From contig OZ360222.1 of NCBI GenBank assembly GCA_977017645.1, forward strand, positions 120,652,001 through 120,716,000: DNA of 64,000 nt, given 5' to 3'. The translations under genes were made by a program, and so were the position numbers. The notes below the pieces were generated by a model. The model was not told the DNA's origin. It searched no databases and was given only the letters and a program-made list of their open reading frames with translations. Positions 8,988-64,000 of the stretch are shown in pieces. Origin of the DNA: Torpedo marmorata. Taxonomy: Eukaryota. Numbering within the stretch: the stretch's first letter is position 1; each line of letters opens with the position of its first letter.

Positions 8988-9754
8988 CCGTATATTTCTG
9001 CGTATAAGTCGTGTCTTGAAACCCTCAAAAATCTCAAAAAACGGGGGTCGACTTATACGCCAGATATACTTTTGAGACCTTAAAATCAGCTCAAAAACCA
9101 CTCCACGCCGATTCGGCGTATAAGTCGACCCTTGAAAACCCGATTCGGCGTATAAGTCGACCCATGAAAAACTGATTCGGCGTATAGGTCGACAGTGGAA
9201 GCACCTCCCCACCGCCGGCGTCACCGCTTCCCGACACCTCCCCACCGCCGGGCGCCGCCATAAACCACCCAGACATTCTACAATTGTAGAGCCTGAGGTC
9301 GCCGCTCCTGCCCGGGAGAACGAGGTCGCCGCACCTGCCCGGGAGAACAAGGTCGCCGCTCCTGCCCGGGAGAACGAGTCCCCGCACCTGCTCGGGAGCC
9401 GACACGTACAGTGGTTCCTGCACCGAGCACACTTGGCAGCGAGGCGACTTCTTTAATGAGGACTCTGGCTGCAGCCGAAGCTGAAGACTTGGACCCATCT
9501 CCGTTTGGCATCTTCCCGGCCAGAAGCAAAGGTTTTTTTTACTGTTTTTTTTTTTTACTTACTTGCTTAATTTACAGCTTTGTTACTTGGCGATTGGGGT
9601 GTTGTAACAAATTTCGGGTTGTTGCTGGGAGGCCCGGACAGCCTGAAAATTGGGGGTCGACTTATACACCGGATATACAATAAAACCATTAAAATTAGGC
9701 TGAAAAAGGGGGGTCGACTTATCCACGAGTCGACTTATACGCCGAAATATACGG
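8988..9754. mobile_element. Non-autonomous pogo MITE of the same family as 10207-12169
   Basis: TIR CCGTATATTTC.GCGTATAAGTCG, TA TSD; the L1 frame (NIY|VPN) resumes when it is removed; internal 29-bp repeats at about 9295-9380. Confidence 0.92.
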
Positions 9755-10206: not shown

Positions 10207-12169
10207 CCGTATATTTCAGCGTATAAGTCGACCCTTGAAACCCTCAAAAAACGGGGGTCGACTTATACGCCGGATATACTTTTGAGACCTTAAATTCAGC
10301 TCAAAATCGAGTTCACGCCGATCCGGCGTATAAGTCGACCCCTGAAAACACGATTCGGCATATAAGTCGACCCCTGAAACACGATTCGGCGTATAAGTCG
10401 ACCCCTGAAAAACCAAAAAAAAACCGACTGCAACAAATTTTCATTGAAAACAACAAGACATTTAGAACCCTTCAAAATCACTTTCGCTATCATCATCTGA
10501 GGCAAAGATCTCGGCAAGCACATCCGGGGTCTCACTGTTAAAACAGTCATCGTACGGGTCCCAGTCTGTATCTGATGAGGCGTCTTCAGCTTCGTCGTCA
10601 GTGTCCCACAATAAATCATCTTCTGTACCATCAATTGCACTAGAGATACCGCACTTTTTAAATGATTTTATTATAGTCTTTACTTTCACTTTGTCCCATG
10701 CCTTGAGCACGAAGTCACACAGCACATCAAGCGATGCAGCACGCATTGCCCCGCCTTTTGTAAATGATTTTTCTGCACTCGCCATCCATGTATTCCACTC
10801 TTCACGCACGTGGTCTTTGAATGGCTTGTTCAAGCAGATATCGAGAGGTTGCAATATAGACGTCAAACCACCCGGGATAACCGCCATGTAAGTATTATGT
10901 TGTGCTAATGTACTTTTAGTCTTCTCAGTTAAGTGGCTACGAAACATATCCCAGACCAGCAAACTCCGTTCCTTGCGTAAACCGCCTGGCCGCCTGTTCC
11001 ACACATTGTCTATCCATAGTATTACACCATTTTCATCCATCCATCCTTTTTCATGAAAATGTACAAAAATACCTGCTGGGAAATTTATTTTAGGTTTAAG
11101 TTTGCGCTTGAAGATTACCATGGGTCTTAACTTTGTCCCGTCGGCCATGCACGATAACACCACAGTAAACCTGGTCTTTTCATGTCCTGTACTCCTGGTT
11201 TGCACAGTTTTCACACCTTTCCATTCCACTGTTCTATTGCCTATCATGTCAAAATTCATGGGGGTTTCGTCCATGTTTCCAATATTTGCCAATGCAAACT
11301 TGTGTTTCTTCCGGTTACGTAAAATAAACTGGTGAAAACTTACAACTTTATGATCAAGATCTTTTGGTAGTTTCTGAGCAATTTTTGTTTTTTGTCATAA
11401 TACCAGATTTTTCCTGTTCATAAAACGGTTGCACCAGCCTACTGAAGCTTCAAAATCATTACTGAGTTCTGGGTGCGATTTTGCCCAGTTCAGTGCAAAT
11501 GTTCTTATTTTATTTCGGGTGACTATGTAGCAATCTTGCCTCTGTTCACGTACCCATGCTGCTACATGATTTTCCAACTCTGGCCAACGAGTGATTCCTC
11601 TTCTCATGGAACATTGCCTTTTTGGTATTTTTCTTAAAGTATCTTCTTTCTTCCTCCAATCTCTTACCAACTTCTCATATATATCAAATTTTCTTGCAGC
11701 AGCACAGTTGTTGGTTTTCTTGGCCATTTCTATTACTTTCAATTTAAAACTCGTCTCATACTTTCGTCGTTTCAATTGAGCCTTCAATGGAGCCTCCATG
11801 ATAACAATCACCTCCAGCCAACGCCCAGCAGCTCAATGATCGCGATCGTTGTGGGTCGACCTATACGCCGGTCAACGCCCAGCAGCTCAATGATCGCGAT
11901 CGTTGTGGGTCGATCTATACGCCAGTCAACGCCCAGCAGCTCAATGATCTCGATCGGTGTGGGTCGATCTATACGCCAGTCAACGGCCAGCAGCTCAATC
12001 ATCGCGTTTTTTGAGGGTCGACTTATACGCCGGTCAATGCGCAACATCTCAGGCATCGCGTTTTTTGGGGGTCGACTTATACGCCGGATATACCATAAAA
12101 CCATTAAAATTAGGCTGAAAAAGGGGGGTCGACTTATCTGCCGGTCGACTTATACGCCGAAATATACGG
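10207..12169 (-). mobile_element. Autonomous-type pogo DNA transposon (DD35D, Passer/POGK-like)
   Basis: About 24-bp TIRs, TA TSD, transposase on the - strand. Confidence 0.95.
10462..11811 (-). pseudogene. pogo transposase (Brinker-type DBD, CENP-B-type HTH, DDE_1) with one in-frame stop
   Basis: NMDETP, VWDMFRSH and LQPLD, with 35 residues between D2 and D3; ORFs 11395-11811 and 10462-11292 share a frame and are split by TGA at 11395-11397. Confidence 0.9.
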
Positions 12170-47387: not shown

Positions 47388-50300
47388 TGTTGTATATGTC
47401 ACGTATGACGTGATGACGTCATACGCACTATATAAAGCGTAGCGCTGGATACCATTTTAGTTTAGTAATAAAGTTTGAATGAAGAAGCACGTCTCGGTGT
47501 GTTATTGTATGTTTTACACCCGAAATATACAACAGATTGGTGACGAGGATAAAAACGAACTTCCCTAACAAGGAAAGGGAGGGGAAGAAAGAAGACCTAC
47601 CACAACAGTGAGCTCCACAGGCTCACTCACAGAGAACAAAGGAAAAACACAGTGGAAGACTCAAAATGGCGGACAGCCGTTTCGGAGAGTACAAAGACTC
47701 AGAAGACTGGTATGACTACGTTGAAAGATTCAATATGTACTATATTGCCCACAATGTAGTTGATACACCAGTAACAAGGAGAAAACAAGCTTTGTTCCTA
47801 AGTGAAGTGGGAAGTAAAATTTTTAAACTTATGAAGTCTCTTTTGGCACCTGAAAGACCAAGTACTAAGACTTATGATGAACTATGCACAGTAATAGGAG
47901 AACACCTGTGTCCCAGACCTGTAATTATTGCAGAACATTATAAGTTTTACTCTAGGAAACAAAGAATAGGCGAGCCAATAAGCGAATATTTGGCTGAATT
48001 ACGCAGGTTATCAGAACGTTGTGACTTCGGTGAATTCTTAAATGATGCATTAAGAGACAGATTGGTCATGGGTTTAGCTGACCGTCACACCCAACAACGA
48101 TTGCTGAGTAAACCAGATTTAAATATTGGGACTGCTTATGCTACAGCATTGAGTTTCGAAATGGCTGGGAAAAATATTGATATTATACAAGGAGAAACCT
48201 CGACAGTAGGGTATGTTACCAAACCTGGCAGACAACAGTGCTTCCGCTGCGGAAAGAGCAACCACAGCCCTGACAACTGTTACTTTAAAAAGGCCAAATG
48301 CCATTATTGTGACAAAGAAGGACATATTAAATCCAGATGTCCAAGCAGAAAATTACTATACCAGAAAAGTAACAAGCAGAAGTCAAAAGTTAACAGACAA
48401 TCATCCAAAGTAAAAAAAGTTAAAGAAAAAGATGCAGCGGAAACCCCTAGTAGTGAGTCGACTAATGACTCGGATGAGGAAAAAACAGGAGATAGAACAC
48501 AAGCAGTGGATGTAATGCATGTCCACAGTGTGGGGGACAAGAAGTCGGAAATTTATGTAGATGTTAAAATCAATGGCAAACCCATTCGAATGGAATTAGA
48601 CACCGGAGCCTCCGTAACTCTAATGCCGAAAAACATATTGTTTGAATTTTGGCCCAACATTACCATAAAACCATCCGACATCCTATTAAGAACAGTCACA
48701 GGGGAAAAAATCACAGTGATTGGTAAATGCAAAGTGGAAGTCGAATATAAGGGTAAGATCTCAAAAGACTTACCCATGATCATTATTGATGCAAAGGGAA
48801 AAGCCTTATTCGGAAGGAACTGGCTATCACATATTCCGTTGGATTGGATGGAAATTGGATCAGTACTAAAGGTTCAGGCTGAAAATGAACCAAAGTTGGC
48901 ACAAGTACTGAATAAGTATCAGACATTATTTAAGAAAGGTCTGGGGAAAATCAAAGGAGTCGAGGCACAATTAAAATTGAAACCGGAAGCGGAACCAAAG
49001 TTCTATAAGCCAAGGACAGTGCCTTTGCGATAAAAGGAAAAATTGATGTGGAACTCAGCAGATTAGAAAACGAAGGAATCATTGAAAAGCTGCAATATAG
49101 TGATTGGGCAGCACCCATTGTGCCGGTTCGGAAACCGAACGGAGAAATTCGAATTTGTGGAGATTATAAAGTCACCATCAATCAGGCTCTGCAAATACCA
49201 CAACACCCAATGCCCAGAGCCGAAGATTTATTCCAATCCCTAAATGGTGGGGAAAAGTTCACCAAGCTGGATCTCTCTCAAGCGTATCAACAAGTTAAAT
49301 TAGATGAAACATCTAAGAAATATGTGGCAATTAATACTCATCGGGGATTATTCACATATACAAGAATGCCGTATGGAATATCAGCAGCACCAGCGATATT
49401 TCAATCAATTATGGACAAATTACTACATGGAATAGATGTAGGGTGCTACCTAGATGATATCATTATCACAGGACGAGACGATGCAGAACATTTATCAAAC
49501 CTGGAAAAAGTCTTAACACGACTACAACAAGCGGACGTCCGTCTGCGTCAAGACAAATGTGTATTTATGGTGCCCTCAGTAACGTATTTAGGATTTACAA
49601 TTAACAAGGAAGGCGTACAAATGAATGCAGCAGGTACCGAAGCCGTCCGAAAAGCGCCTTGTCCAACCAGCAGATCGGAGTTACAATCGTTTTTGGGGTT
49701 AGTCAACCATTACCGAAAACACATTCCAGACATGTCCACCTTGTGCAACCCATTGAACCAGTTACGAAGAAAAGACCAAAAATGGTACTGGAGTACGAAA
49801 GCAAATGATGCCTTTAACCGGTTAAAAAAGCTATTAACTACGAGCAATAATATACTCGTCCACTACGATCCTAACAAAGAGGTAACTTTGGCGGTAGATG
49901 CCTCACCGGTGGGTCTAGGAGCAGTACTGTCACAAATCACCGAAAAAGGAGAACAACCAGTAGCGTATGCATCTCGGTCCTTGACGGCTTGTGAACGCAA
50001 TTATGCACAATTAGAAAAAGAAGGACTGGCCATAATATTTGGAATCAAAAGATTCCACCAGTATTTATATGGAAGAAAATTCACATTAGTAACGGACAAC
50101 AAACCATTGAGCTTGATTTTGGGACCTAAAAAAGGCATTCCAGTATTGGCGGCAACAAGAATCCAGAGATGGGCAATAATGCTCGCCGCTTACGATTGAG
50201 TTGAAACATAAACCAGCGACACAAAACGAACATGCCGATGCTTTATCACGTTTACCCCTGCCAGAAACGGGTCAAACCGAAGAGATAGTTCAATGGACAG

Positions 50301-52020
50301 CAGAGGCCACAGCTGTTAACCAAGAACAGCTTCGCCATCTGCCCATTACAGCCAAAATAATCAGTAAAGAAGTAAGAAATGAACCCACACTGGCCAAGGT
50401 TTTGTATTTTACATTAAATGGATGGCCAGAAGGGGACACCATTTCTTCAGACCTTAAACCTTACTATATCCGACGGAATGAAATAACTATTGAAGAAGGT
50501 TGCTTATTGTGGGGTGCCCGGACAAATATCCCAAGGAAATGGCTAAAGGACATATTGGCAGAACTTCATGATAACCATCCTGGGATAGTCCGCATGAAAG
50601 CGCTAGCACGAATGCATGTTTTGTGGCTATCAATGGATATGGATATCGAGCAAACTGTACGAAGGTGTGGCATTTGTCAAGATATGCAACCGAAAGCTCC
50701 CCAGGCCGAAGCAAATCCATGGAAATGGCCGTCTCGACCATGGCACAGAATCCATGTAGATTTTGCAGGTCCATTTATCGACGCACACGCCAAATGGCCA
50801 GTGGTATCACACATGCGTACCACAACAACCATCCAAACAATTGAAAGATTAAGAACTATGTTTGCATCATATGGATTGCCAGTGGAATTGGTCTCAGACA
50901 ATGGTCCTCAGTTTACTTCAGATGTTTTTAGAATGTTCCTGCGTAACAATGGTATACGCCATGTACTTTCCGCACCGTACCACCCAAGTACTAATGGAGA
51001 AGCGGAGCGTTTTGTGCGAACATTTAAAAATGCTATGAAAGCAGGCAAATCGCTTAACTTTTCATGGAATCATAGAATAGCAAATTTCCTTGCAGGATAC
51101 AGAAATACACCTCATTCAACAACTAAAAGAACACCAGCAGAATTAATGTTTGGACGGAATATTCGAACGCGGCTATCAGCAGTGCACCCGGATATCAGCG
51201 GTCGTATTGAACACGACACCTCACCAACTAAACCAACCAGATCTCTGGAAGTGGGTGAAAGAGTGTTGGTAAGAGATTACAGGAATAATAAAGAAACATG
51301 GATAAGAGGTGTTATCATTAAGAAGTTAAGCCCTTGCTCATATGCCATACAAGTAGAGACTAACATATGGAAATGACATATTGACCAACTGAGAGCAGTA
51401 GAAGATCCAATAATGACAGATGAGCCGAAGGATTTGCCATCTTGGGTCAATGACGATGATGCTGATCTAGAGACAGACTCCAGGTATCAACAATACTCAT
51501 CGAGATTCCAGTTTCCAGTTTGAAGAAGATATTACGGCAGAAAAGACAAAAAGTCCAAGTCCAGAGAAGACAAAAAGTCCAGAAAAGACAGAGTCCCATG
51601 GTTCCGACAGTTGTAGGGGATCCACCCCTAAGAAGATCACACCGTCAACGACGTCCGCCGGAACATTTGAGAGACTATGTACCCTAAATAATTTTTCACT
51701 ATTGTGATTATCAGTATTATACTAACAGTTAGTATTGGTAGTTTTACTTGTATGATTTTTTTTAGTTGTAGTTGTAGTTTCCCCGCTATATTTCAGTAGT
51801 TACGGTAGTTTACAAGTGATCGGGGAATATGTAATCGTATAATAATAATCTATATTATGTGGGGGGGGAAGAGTGTTGTATATGTCACGTATGACGTGAT
51901 GACGTCATACGCACTATATAAAGCGTAGCGCTGGATACCATTTTAGTTTAGTAATAAAGTTTGAATGAAGAAGCACGTCTCGGTGTGTTATTGTATGTTT
52001 TACACCCGAAATATACAACA
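47388..52020 (+). mobile_element. Full-length Ty3/Gypsy LTR retrotransposon, Mag-like (gag-PR-RT-RH-IN)
   Basis: Identical 147-bp LTRs (47388-47534, 51874-52020) with 10-bp terminal inverted repeats; 5-bp TSD ACTAT; PBS 47538-47550; PPT 51861-51873; inserted in a CR1 3' end (-). Confidence 0.97.
47666..51376 (+). pseudogene. Gypsy gag-pol, disrupted
   Basis: Two CCHC knuckles, LDTGA protease, YLDD RT, DAS/EKE RNase H, HHCC and D,D,E integrase; frameshifts at about 49024 and 50197; stop at 51374. Confidence 0.93.
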
Positions 52021-58542: not shown

Positions 58543-58666
58543 GTGTTGATCCAGAATTGTATGAGTTGACTACATCCAAACTGGAAGGCTCAAGTACTGT
58601 CAATCAAATGACCGATGCATTTGCTCGACTCATGTCTACAGCAGAGAAGATGAGCACATCTAGCAG
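58543..58666 (+). CDS. AFTPH: Aftiphilin exon (GVDPELYELTTSKLEG...DAFARLMSTAEKMSTSSR)
   Basis: TTTTAG acceptor, GTAAG donor, 124 nt, phase 1 to 2. Confidence 0.95.
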
Positions 58667-59132
58667 GTAAGAAATAGAATCCTTTAAAGTTCTATTTTGA
58701 GAACTACTTTGAACTGCAGTTTGTATCCCAGTTGTTGTATGTAGAGCATCTTGTTAAATAACCAAATATATTTTCACACTGTTTAATGTACAAATCTGTT
58801 CATTATCTAATGGATTTTTGTGAACCTGTTAATTTTACATAAAAGATGAAAGTAAAGATGATTGGTGTGAAATTGGAATCTATATTGAATTAAAATTCCA
58901 TGTTCCATTGGCTGTCTAGGTCTTAAGTTCTGAGATATATTTCCAAAATACTTTAGGCCAGTCTTCATGGTAAAAGGCACTACAAACAGCCCAATAGTAA
59001 CAAGACAATAAAATGACTATGGGGAAGGAGAAACTCTTATCACCAGAGAACACATAGTTGGCAAACTGAGATAAAGGTGGACAAGTCACCTGGACCTAAT
59101 AACTTGCATTTTAGGAACTTACAGGAAGTGTA

Positions 59133-60125
59133 CCGTATTTTCACGCCTAGCACGCGCCTAGCCCGTCCCGCGCACGCAATCATAAATTGTGTAAAAATAT
59201 TTTCGTATAGTGCGCACACCGCGCAGGTGTAGTATTCTAAATTCTAACTGACAAAAGCAATTTGCATTTAATTGTGAGACAAAACACATTCCATAGTCCC
59301 AGTATCTGCCACAGTTAATCTCCCGCTATTTACACCCATTCAACTTCCCCCAAAGGTGTCAATCGCCCATTATATAGATGATATCCTCCTGCAAACCATT
59401 AACAAGCTTTGGAGAGGAATTAATTAAATATATCGAAGACAGGCTTCAGAGTTAAGCAGGATTTAATTCTGTCATGATTTAAAAAGCCTTTAAAAGAAAC
59501 TTTATCTTGTTAAAAATAGTGTGCAATTGAGAAATTTATGGTTTGATTTGATGTAATGAGGATGATTAAACTGATGCCATAGGGCAGAATCATCCTAATG
59601 TTGTCTCAGATCAGAGGCACTTGATATGTTAATCTCCTCCCTCGGGATGGGTCTGGGCAATTAACATTGATAAGGTGCAGTGCCCTAGCCAGAATATCCC
59701 GTTTCTCGGAATACCATGGCACAGGCCAAAGAGATATTCCCAAGATCAAAATTTTGAATTTTGCCATTTTGTATGTACCCAATTCCCACGCTCGCTATAA
59801 ATTGCCGGTGCGACTTTCCCACGCCCGCTATAAATTGTGCGTGTTCTTGGGACATGAGACAAAACACATTCTTGTCTCATTTACCCGGTACTTGGGACAT
59901 GAGACAAAACATTTACTTGGGACATGAGACAAAACACATTCCATAGTCCCACTATCTGCCACAGTTAATCTCCCGCGATTTACACCCATTCAACTCCCCC
60001 CAGATGTGTTAATCGCCCATTATATAGATGATATCCTCTTGCAACACATTAACAAGCTTTGGAGAGGAATCAATTAAATAGATCGAAGACAGGCTTCAGA
60101 GTTAAGCAGGATTCTGTCATGATTT
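59133..60125 (+). mobile_element. pogo-like left terminus followed by retroviral RT fragments and an internal duplication of about 200 bp
   Basis: TA|CCGTATTTTCACG start; HSPxICH and AHYIDDILLQ in two copies; WAINIDKVQ..FLGIPW; no right TIR found. Confidence 0.65.
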
Positions 60126-61425
60126 AGGGATTGGAATAATTCCTCCGCTCTTGGCATGGGATGTTCCGATACTTGCAGAGCCTGATTAACAGTGCCTTTA
60201 TAATCTCCGCAAATTCGGATTTCTCCATTCGGTTTTCGGACTGGCACAATGGGAGCTGCCCAGTCACTATATTGAAGCTTTACAATGATTCCCTCGTTTT
60301 CTAATCTGTTGAGTTCCGCCTCAATTTTTCATTTTATTGAAAAAGGCACTGTCCTTGGCTTATAGAACTTTGGTTCAGCTTCAGGTTTCAATTGTAATTT
60401 TGCTTCGGCTCCTTTGATTCTCCCCAGGCTTTTCCCAAATAAGGTTTGATACTTCTTCAGCACTTGTGTCAGTTTTGGTTCATTTTCCGTCTGAATCTTC
60501 AGTACTGACCCGATTTCCATCCAATCCAATTGGATGTGTCATAGCCAGTTCCTTCCGAACAAGGCTTTTCCCATTGCGTCAATAATGACGATGGGTAAGT
60601 CTTTTGAGATCTTACCCTTATATTCGACCTTAACTTTGCATTTACCAATCACTTTTACTTTTTCCCCTGTGACTGTTCTTCATTGTAATCGTTGTTGGGT
60701 GTTGCGGTCAGCCAAACCCATGACCAATTGGTCTCTTAACGCATCATTTAAGAATTCTCCGAACTCACAACGTTCTGATAGCCTGCGCAATTCAGCTAAA
60801 TATTCGCTTATTGGCTCTGGCTCGCCTGTCATTTGCTTTCTGGAATAAAACTTATAACGTTCTGCAATAATTACTGGTCTGGGGAATAGGTGTTCTCCTA
60901 TTACCGTGCATAGTTCATCATAAGTCTTAGCACTTGGTCTTTCAGGTGTCAAAAGGGACTTCATAAGTTTAAAAGTTTTGCTTCCCACTTCACTTAGAAA
61001 CAGAACTTGTTTCCTCTTGGTTACTGGTGTATCAGTCACATTGTGGGCAATACAGTACATATTGAATCTTTCAATGTAGTCATACCAGTCTTCTGAGTCT
61101 TTGTACTCTCCGAAACGGCTGTCCGCCATTTTGCATTTTTTCCCACGTTTTCCCTTCTTTCTTCTTTGTGAGTGAGCCTGTGGAGCTCACTGATGTGGTA
61201 GGTTTTCGTTCTTCTTTTCTTCTCCCTTTCCTTGTTAGGGAAGTTCGTTTTGATCCTCGTCGCCAATCTGTAGTGTATTCTAGGTTTAGATATACACAAG
61301 CACACGGAGACGTGGTGCTTCATTCATCCTTTATTATTAATCTAACAATGGTTTCCCGCGCCACGCTTTATATAGTGCGTGATGACGTCATACGCGGCGT
61401 ACCAAGACTGCGTGTATCCACAACA
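60126..61425 (-). mobile_element. 3'-truncated Mag-like Gypsy, a sister family of 47388-52020
   Basis: 157-bp LTR 61269-61425; PBS TGGCGACGAGGAT 61253-61265; gag MADSRFGEYKDSEDW; gag-PR deletion at about 60680; ends early in RT. Confidence 0.92.
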
Positions 61426-61587
61426 CTGTGGCTTGATTCAGATTTTATTTTTTGATATTATCATGAAATATTTTAGGACTTTTACCATGCTCGAGGTGCT
61501 ACAAAAAGTACATTGTTTATTGATACTGTAACTCCCTCATTAACTTGAGGATTAACCTCGAGGATTAACATTAATTTGTTTATTTTA

Positions 61588-63850: not shown

Positions 63851-64000
63851 ATGTACTTGGATGTAAACACAACAATTTGGCTTGGACCATATAATGGTGC
63901 AAGTAATTTTGATTGCTTGATGTGAATTTTTTTCTAATTCAGATTAGAATGATAGGGCTTGCCATTTTACTGCTGGTAAACCTTGAAATTATGATTTGTT

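Follow-up and report, generated by a model that had tools for sequence, protein, structure and literature searches.

The window, meaning the whole stretch of 64,000 nucleotides that was analysed, contains a mosaic of transposon and retroviral sequence. Positions 59133-60126 are a single copy of an element that ends in terminal inverted repeats and has TA on its flanks. In this copy the left inverted repeat is decayed and no right end remains; that it is a transposon is judged from its sister copies. The features are, in order:

59131..59132, +: TA target-site dinucleotide at the left end
59133..59232, +: left arm of a pogo (Passer-type), with decayed terminal inverted repeat and subterminal repeats
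59240..59394, +: captured retroviral reverse transcriptase (RT) part A, as far as the YIDD block; with frameshifts and an internal deletion, and an approximate start
59397..59609, +: spacer of ~210 nt, which splits the RT cargo in later subfamilies
59611..59765, +: captured retroviral RT part B, placed by DNA match to proviruses and by BLASTX
59768..59847, +: captured LTR piece of the donor endogenous retrovirus (ERV), with a ~50-nt tandem unit, placed by LTR match
59843..60126, +: three short RT-derived repeats, then RT part A a second time (59925-60044) and 87 nt from the start of the spacer
60122..61427, -: truncated Gypsy LTR retrotransposon in place of the element's right end; outside the element

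The original prediction read RT motifs here, and three-frame translation agrees with it on what they are and where they lie. FHSPSICH, LISR and QLPP..IAHYIDDILLQ are read at approximately 59289-59394 and again at 59939-60044. SEALDMLISSL is located at 59611-59643, WAINIDKVQCPSQNIPFLGIPW at 59654-59719 and GQRDIPKIKILNFA at 59724-59765. Both YIDD blocks are contained in a direct repeat of 189 nt, whose units share 94% identity and lie 650 nt apart; the two copies of RT part A differ by a K2P distance of 0.061. Sister copies align from 59129-59133, and 59169-59219 of the left arm is 84% identical to the parent pogo L129. RT part A shares 83-85% identity over 59290-59394 with proviruses L072 and L086-L089, with further extension upstream; RT part B (59611-59741) matches proviruses at 83-85%, with E-values down to 3e-36. 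Positions 59801-59847 match the LTRs of L071, L072 and L088 at up to 93%, and the LTR piece is longer in sister copies. The spacer maps as a block apart from the pogo and ERV pieces; its 190-nt core has no match in 16 proviral loci (L161-L176).

No right arm was found as far as position 64000. The element joins the Gypsy at 60122-60126 with a 5-nt microhomology (ATTTA), which suggests that the joint arose by deletion. This Gypsy is 86-87% identical to the one at 47413-49245; the family is present twice in the window, at 47413-51996 (+) and as the internally deleted, truncated copy at 60122-61427 (-). There is a likely host coding exon at 58543-58667 (+), read from its sequence and its AG/GT edges, for which no gene identity was found. 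The RT stretch lies ~460 bp downstream of it and is thus probably intronic.

BLASTX of 59270-60060 was run against seven Pol proteins of class III type, together with the Gypsy and CR1 RTs of the window itself. The best score is 37.4 bits and the best sum E-value is 2e-7 (stingray P0002); the top score among 100 shuffles of the region is 25.8 bits. The best match is of class III type, as anticipated. There is no match at E<=10 to the window's Gypsy or CR1 RTs, which upholds the earlier view that the motifs differ from the Gypsy and LINE RTs nearby. At the DNA level the RT pieces match the closest proviral subfamilies in the same genome at ~80-92% identity (E-values to 3e-36). A 55-aa cargo piece from a sister copy, searched alone, found no match in the protein database, PDB or Pfam; the RT identification therefore rests on the longer proviral copies. 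With phmmer the proviral RT scores 173-351 bits against class III-type proteins, 86 against MLV-type, 71 against foamy, 31 against HIV RT and 21 against Gypsy.

The RT tree (careful IQ-TREE run, LG+G4, 47 rows, labelled from source names, Pfam and characteristic motifs) includes the older cargo copies L035 and L036, because the window's own pieces are too short. These two rows join the subfamily A proviruses (100/83), then a stingray protein (99/97) and then a ray clade (96/95). The ray clade falls inside a 25-row group with the mouse ERV-L-type Pol P0014 (85/94), which is inside a 34-row clade (97/100); class I-like and Gypsy RT rows fall outside the clade holding the ray RTs and the mouse protein. 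Quick trees under a mixture model have the same nesting. Genome rows which cross frameshifts inflated branches in one quick tree and were left out of later trees. The tree agrees with the predicted affinity in that the cargo nests with proviruses near a mouse ERV-L-type Pol; its rows hold no labelled HERV-S, XtERV-S, SnRV or lokiretrovirus, and P0006 (X. tropicalis) is not an established XtERV-S. Together, these comparisons support assignment of the RT cargo and its donor to a class III ERV related to ERV-L and ERV-S. On BLASTX, phmmer scores and the RT tree, derivation of the RT from a Gypsy, CR1 or class I element is rejected.

The original prediction proposed a search for a longer source provirus, and proviruses of ~7 kb are present in the same genome. 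An exact two-motif search of the genome for an uninterrupted RT gave 0 matches and a looser motif search gave 142. Twenty of the 142 loci were read: six are proviral and the others are transposon copies or fragments. A gag-protease search of the genome gave 2,347 candidates, 40 of which were scored. The donor sample consists of 36 loci, being twenty 10-kb stretches around RT-motif matches and 16 loci from the gag-protease search. The donor family is abundant in the genome and has several proviral subfamilies, organised as LTR-gag-pro-RT-RNase H-integrase-env-LTR. Their reading frames are interrupted by stops and frameshifts; the LTR-gag-pro-pol(-env)-LTR structure is present together with a primer site. 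Over 18 nt the primer site is complementary to a host tRNA-Ser(TGA) gene (L093) at its 3' end plus CCA, and it is recognisable within 3 mismatches in 28 of the 36 loci; ARAGORN calls a tRNA in one of four loci. TLV_coat matches are found in 4/4 env frames scanned. The env transmembrane protein is of gamma type, with an ISD-like motif in three of the four frames and CX6CC in two. A 5-bp target duplication is exact in L163 and matches at 4/5 positions in L088; the ends could not be placed in six further loci. A tblastn search with the dUTPase of P0003 found no match in the 36 donor loci of 10 kb. ERV-L proper has no env and has a dUTPase after integrase; judged by its genes, the donor family would not be ERV-L proper. 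Across a long stretch free of gaps, none of the 36 proviral loci comes closer to the cargo than ~88%.

The donor has much in common with XtERV-S and ERV-S as described in the available part of PMC8278194: a class III RT with YIDD, a tRNA-Ser primer site and a gamma-type transmembrane protein with ISD and CX6CC. Those elements have a 5-bp target duplication, which among the donor loci is exact in L163 and 4/5 in L088. According to the same text, a dUTPase-like region follows integrase in XtERV-S; no such region was found in the donor, which resembles ERV-S in this respect (PMC8278194). Unlike XtERV-S and ERV-S, the donor RT sits in a ray clade with stingray proteins. Among 1.84 billion representatives, the protein that matches it best comes from a stingray (64% identity), and IMG/VR holds no relative of the family. 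With a stingray as the nearest named relative, the data fit the cartilaginous-fish host suggested by the original prediction. Related class III ERV gene models are found in the stingray Hemitrygon akajei (the P0007 cluster); several of these carry the annotation 'Friend virus susceptibility protein 1-like', which is consistent with a gag of ERV-L type.

The original prediction regarded the RT as a trace of a lineage of a kind poorly sampled in chondrichthyans. The lineage is not a rare trace: the donor family is abundant in the genome, and a review, in the portion available, places ERV-L/SnRV-related retroviruses (clade Huo) in all major vertebrate lineages (PMC8922424). In the accessible text of an elephant-shark survey only SnRV-like and epsilon-like lineages are reported (PMC4422223), and ERVs with gamma-type env are known from six cartilaginous fish (bioRxiv 10.1101/2021.11.23.469661, as far as its available text goes). 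On these partial sources, the donor is a new member of a kind of ERV already known across vertebrates. As a by-product, the analysis describes a class III ERV family that is abundant in a probable ray, bears env and is primed by tRNA-Ser.

A genome search (6.2 Gb) with window positions 59270-60130 gave 2,927 first-look candidates; 40/40 of those scored match at 84-100%. Sister copies stop sharply at ~25-nt inverted repeats starting CCGTATTTT, with TA outside. The exact left 22-mer with TA occurs at 691 genome sites and its reversed control at 0. Among the first 30 of these sites (all on one contig), RT is found in 29; a right end follows within 1.5 kb in 17, with TA after it in 17/17. A right-end pattern searched without TA has TA outside in 28/30 loci and RT within 1.5 kb in 22/30. 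The exact 22-mer is present at 26 of 57 cargo-bearing left ends collected with other queries, which gives ~1,460 copies in the genome; this is probably low, because the 57-end sample leans to well-preserved copies. The overall estimate is 1,500 or more sites. The junction between pogo arm and RT is bridged by contigs of four organisms (from four studies, one of the organisms possibly being the window's own source), and the loose ends are unrelated at both termini. Copies L014, L016, L017 and L018 have internal duplications or tandem partial units, which adds to the rearrangement within the family.

The same ends also flank a 1.8-kb element with a single transposase frame, the parent. A search with the transposase gave 1,023 candidates, of which 40 were scored and 20 loci fetched; fifteen lack the RT cargo and five have it, a ratio biased by the cargo-free query. 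Nine of the fifteen show both ends, seven at ~1.8 kb and two at 2.5 kb. L129 encodes a 439-aa frame with BrkDBD, HTH_Tnp_Tc5 and DDE_1 domains. The catalytic motif is DD35D, with the third Asp in 21/24 copies. Passer elements are described as having a TA duplication, inverted repeats of <30 bp, Brk and HTH domains and a DD35D transposase of 400-500 aa (PMC9976928, PMC7386202, both in part). The carrier has the TA duplication and inverted repeats of <30 bp, and its transposase, with Brk, Tc5 HTH and DDE (DD35D), is within the 400-500 aa range; by domains, DD35D and ends it fits the published family description and can be regarded as a Passer-type pogo. The available portions of these accounts make no mention of retroviral cargo or a regained transposase. 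The window also contains a second Passer-like pogo with BrkDBD, Tc5 HTH and DDE_1 at 10207-12169 (-). It is ruled out as mobiliser, as its inverted repeats differ and its transposase is only ~32-42% identical to that of the cargo family. A short derivative with the same inverted repeats as this second pogo lies at 8988-9754; both are TA-flanked and inside a LINE.

Mapping of copies onto the parent pogo, the provirus and the spacer defines three stages. In stage 1 (0.65-0.95 kb), pogo ends surround ~340 bp of contiguous RT, which has a 24-nt deletion, and then the LTR piece; the spacer is missing. In stage 2 (mostly 1.1-1.5 kb), to which the window copy belongs, the ~210-nt spacer splits the RT and a second RT part A is located near the right end. 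Stage 3 consists of composites of 3.2-3.7 kb (one of 4.2 kb with an insertion), in which parent positions 140-1765, including the transposase, lie between the RT halves. The transposase body is found behind RT part A and the spacer in all twelve fetched loci, and RT part B follows it in eleven. Arrays of the LTR unit are directly upstream of the body in 11/12 and slightly further upstream in the twelfth.

Columns were compared among 14 stage-1, 38 stage-2 and 11 stage-3 copies and 7 proviruses. At seven columns stage 1 keeps the provirus state and stages 2 and 3 have a common change; stage 1 is thus the oldest. Stages 2 and 3 each have derived columns of their own. A deletion may have turned stage 3 into stage 2, or a gain may have turned stage 2 into stage 3. 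Stage-3 transposases form their own clade (0.997), with no fixed indel and no shared stop. Since it sits inside the later-acquired spacer, the transposase was most likely regained after cargo capture. The differences that are fixed between the transposases of parent and composites number 12 synonymous:10 non-synonymous, and private differences are 285:590 (Fisher p=0.029). This ratio is modest evidence that selection may have acted, on a side of the parent/composite branch that is not assignable.

The stretch is very probably a decayed, TA-flanked Passer-type pogo derivative which carries class III RT and LTR pieces, likely captured from a resident ERV, and was likely mobilised by pogo transposase. 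Pogo ends, TA flanks, parent, donor family, mosaic breakpoints, stage order and dispersed copies are the directly observed parts of this account. In stage 1, an internally deleted pogo would have taken up ~340 bp of RT and an LTR piece from a resident class III ERV. The capture may have occurred by template switching during break repair, judging from junction anatomy only; the left pogo/RT junction has ~12 nt of filler and clear microhomology is absent. The stage 1 element would then have acquired the spacer, with RT part A becoming duplicated (stage 2), and one branch would have regained the transposase body of the parent and dispersed as the 3.2-3.7-kb composite (stage 3). Copies were likely dispersed through the genome by the pogo transposase, with the RT pieces as probable inert passengers. 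The window copy would later have lost its right end, probably by deletion into the adjoining Gypsy. That a non-autonomous, retrovirus-laden derivative regained its parent's transposase by template switching and spread as an autonomous chimera is somewhat favoured.

The original prediction implied a decayed class III provirus integrated at this locus. Its claim of an ERV-L/ERV-S-related origin stands, given the tree, the proviruses and the stingray protein, but the notion of a provirus remnant at its integration site does not, as the RT is pogo cargo. RT motifs and an LTR-derived piece are indeed present; however, the locus lacks gag, integrase, env, paired LTRs and a primer site, a pogo arm and TA are found instead, and the mosaic recurs with identical breakpoints at many unrelated sites, each time framed by pogo ends and TA. 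Integration of a provirus here is extremely improbable. Nested insertion followed by trimming, either of a provirus into pogo or of a whole pogo into the cargo element, with stage 3 as a passive form moved in trans, is also unlikely, though less so. The cargo does consist of an RT piece and then an LTR piece, oriented as in a provirus and as expected of the remains of a deleted one, and the inner pogo body lacks only its ends. Nesting is also known in the family: the cargo-bearing copy L048 has a member of the window's other pogo family (83-93% protein identity) further along inside it, probably as a nested insertion. Against this, the cargo edges have no LTR start, primer site or 5-bp duplication, the stage-3 transposase body lies between a duplicated spacer piece and LTR-repeat arrays with no TA duplication, and the 12:10 versus 285:590 differences (p=0.029) modestly suggest selection on that branch.

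The RT/LTR cargo could instead have been retained because it is useful, for example with LTR repeats as promoter or enhancer for the regained transposase. The position of the LTR-unit arrays directly upstream of the transposase body in 11/12 composites is in keeping with this, but array length varies widely, the RT pieces are frameshifted, and short copies without RT part B or the LTR piece have spread too; a useful cargo is therefore rather improbable, and the reading of a pogo derivative with passenger cargo is preferred.

Ten donor LTR pairs have K2P distances of 0.026-0.109. For the transposases the pairwise K2P is 0.060, both among parent copies and among composites, and cargo arms within a stage differ by 0.067-0.078. 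The LTR-pair and transposon divergences overlap, so virus and transposon were active over overlapping periods. Under two substitution rates given in the available part of PMC4422223, 3% from a founder corresponds to some 14-140 million years.

The closest precedent is human RICKSHA, a MuDR element with the 3' portion of HERV-L and its MLT2B LTR (PMC1431705, PMC5753468, both in part). Both are inverted-repeat DNA transposons holding part of a class III ERV, and a cargo-free form, RICKSHA_0, exists as well. According to the same partial sources, RICKSHA is a MuDR with 79-bp inverted repeats and its cargo is the 3' portion of HERV-L plus LTR; the element described here is a pogo/Passer with ~25-nt repeats and TA flanks, and its cargo is RT plus an LTR piece. 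Unlike RICKSHA, it has its parent, donor and three stages in one genome, and one branch codes for transposase. The two are independent, parallel cases. Pack-TIRs, in the model called FoSTeST, capture DNA by template switching and amplify by further transposition (PMC8277862, in part). They are defined in that text by non-TE cargo, whereas here the cargo is retroviral; being ERV-derived, it puts the element outside the Pack-TIR definition, though it works like a multicopy Pack-TIR. Only four multicopy families are given there for 100 animal reference genomes (PMC8277862); here the estimate is 1,500 copies or more. No description of the element was found by literature searches; it may be catalogued in Repbase, Dfam or supplements. 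A superfamily other than MuDR, RT cargo, high copy number and the likely regain of autonomy are likely to be new.

This is a class II element which amplifies class I retroviral sequence at large scale. RT-based ERV censuses in rays would score its cargo copies as retroviral insertions. The preservation of parent, donor and intermediates makes capture models (gap filling, FoSTeST) testable in one family. If stage 3 is autonomous, it would be a documented regain of autonomy, opposite to the normal course in which elements only decay towards non-autonomy, and the regained gene might be driven by LTR repeats. Stage-3 composites (L149-L160) also have in common an insert of ~190 nt just after the transposase (L151, approximately 2523-2714 in element orientation). 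The insert is present at very high depth in contigs and may be a tRNA-derived SINE, which it resembles.
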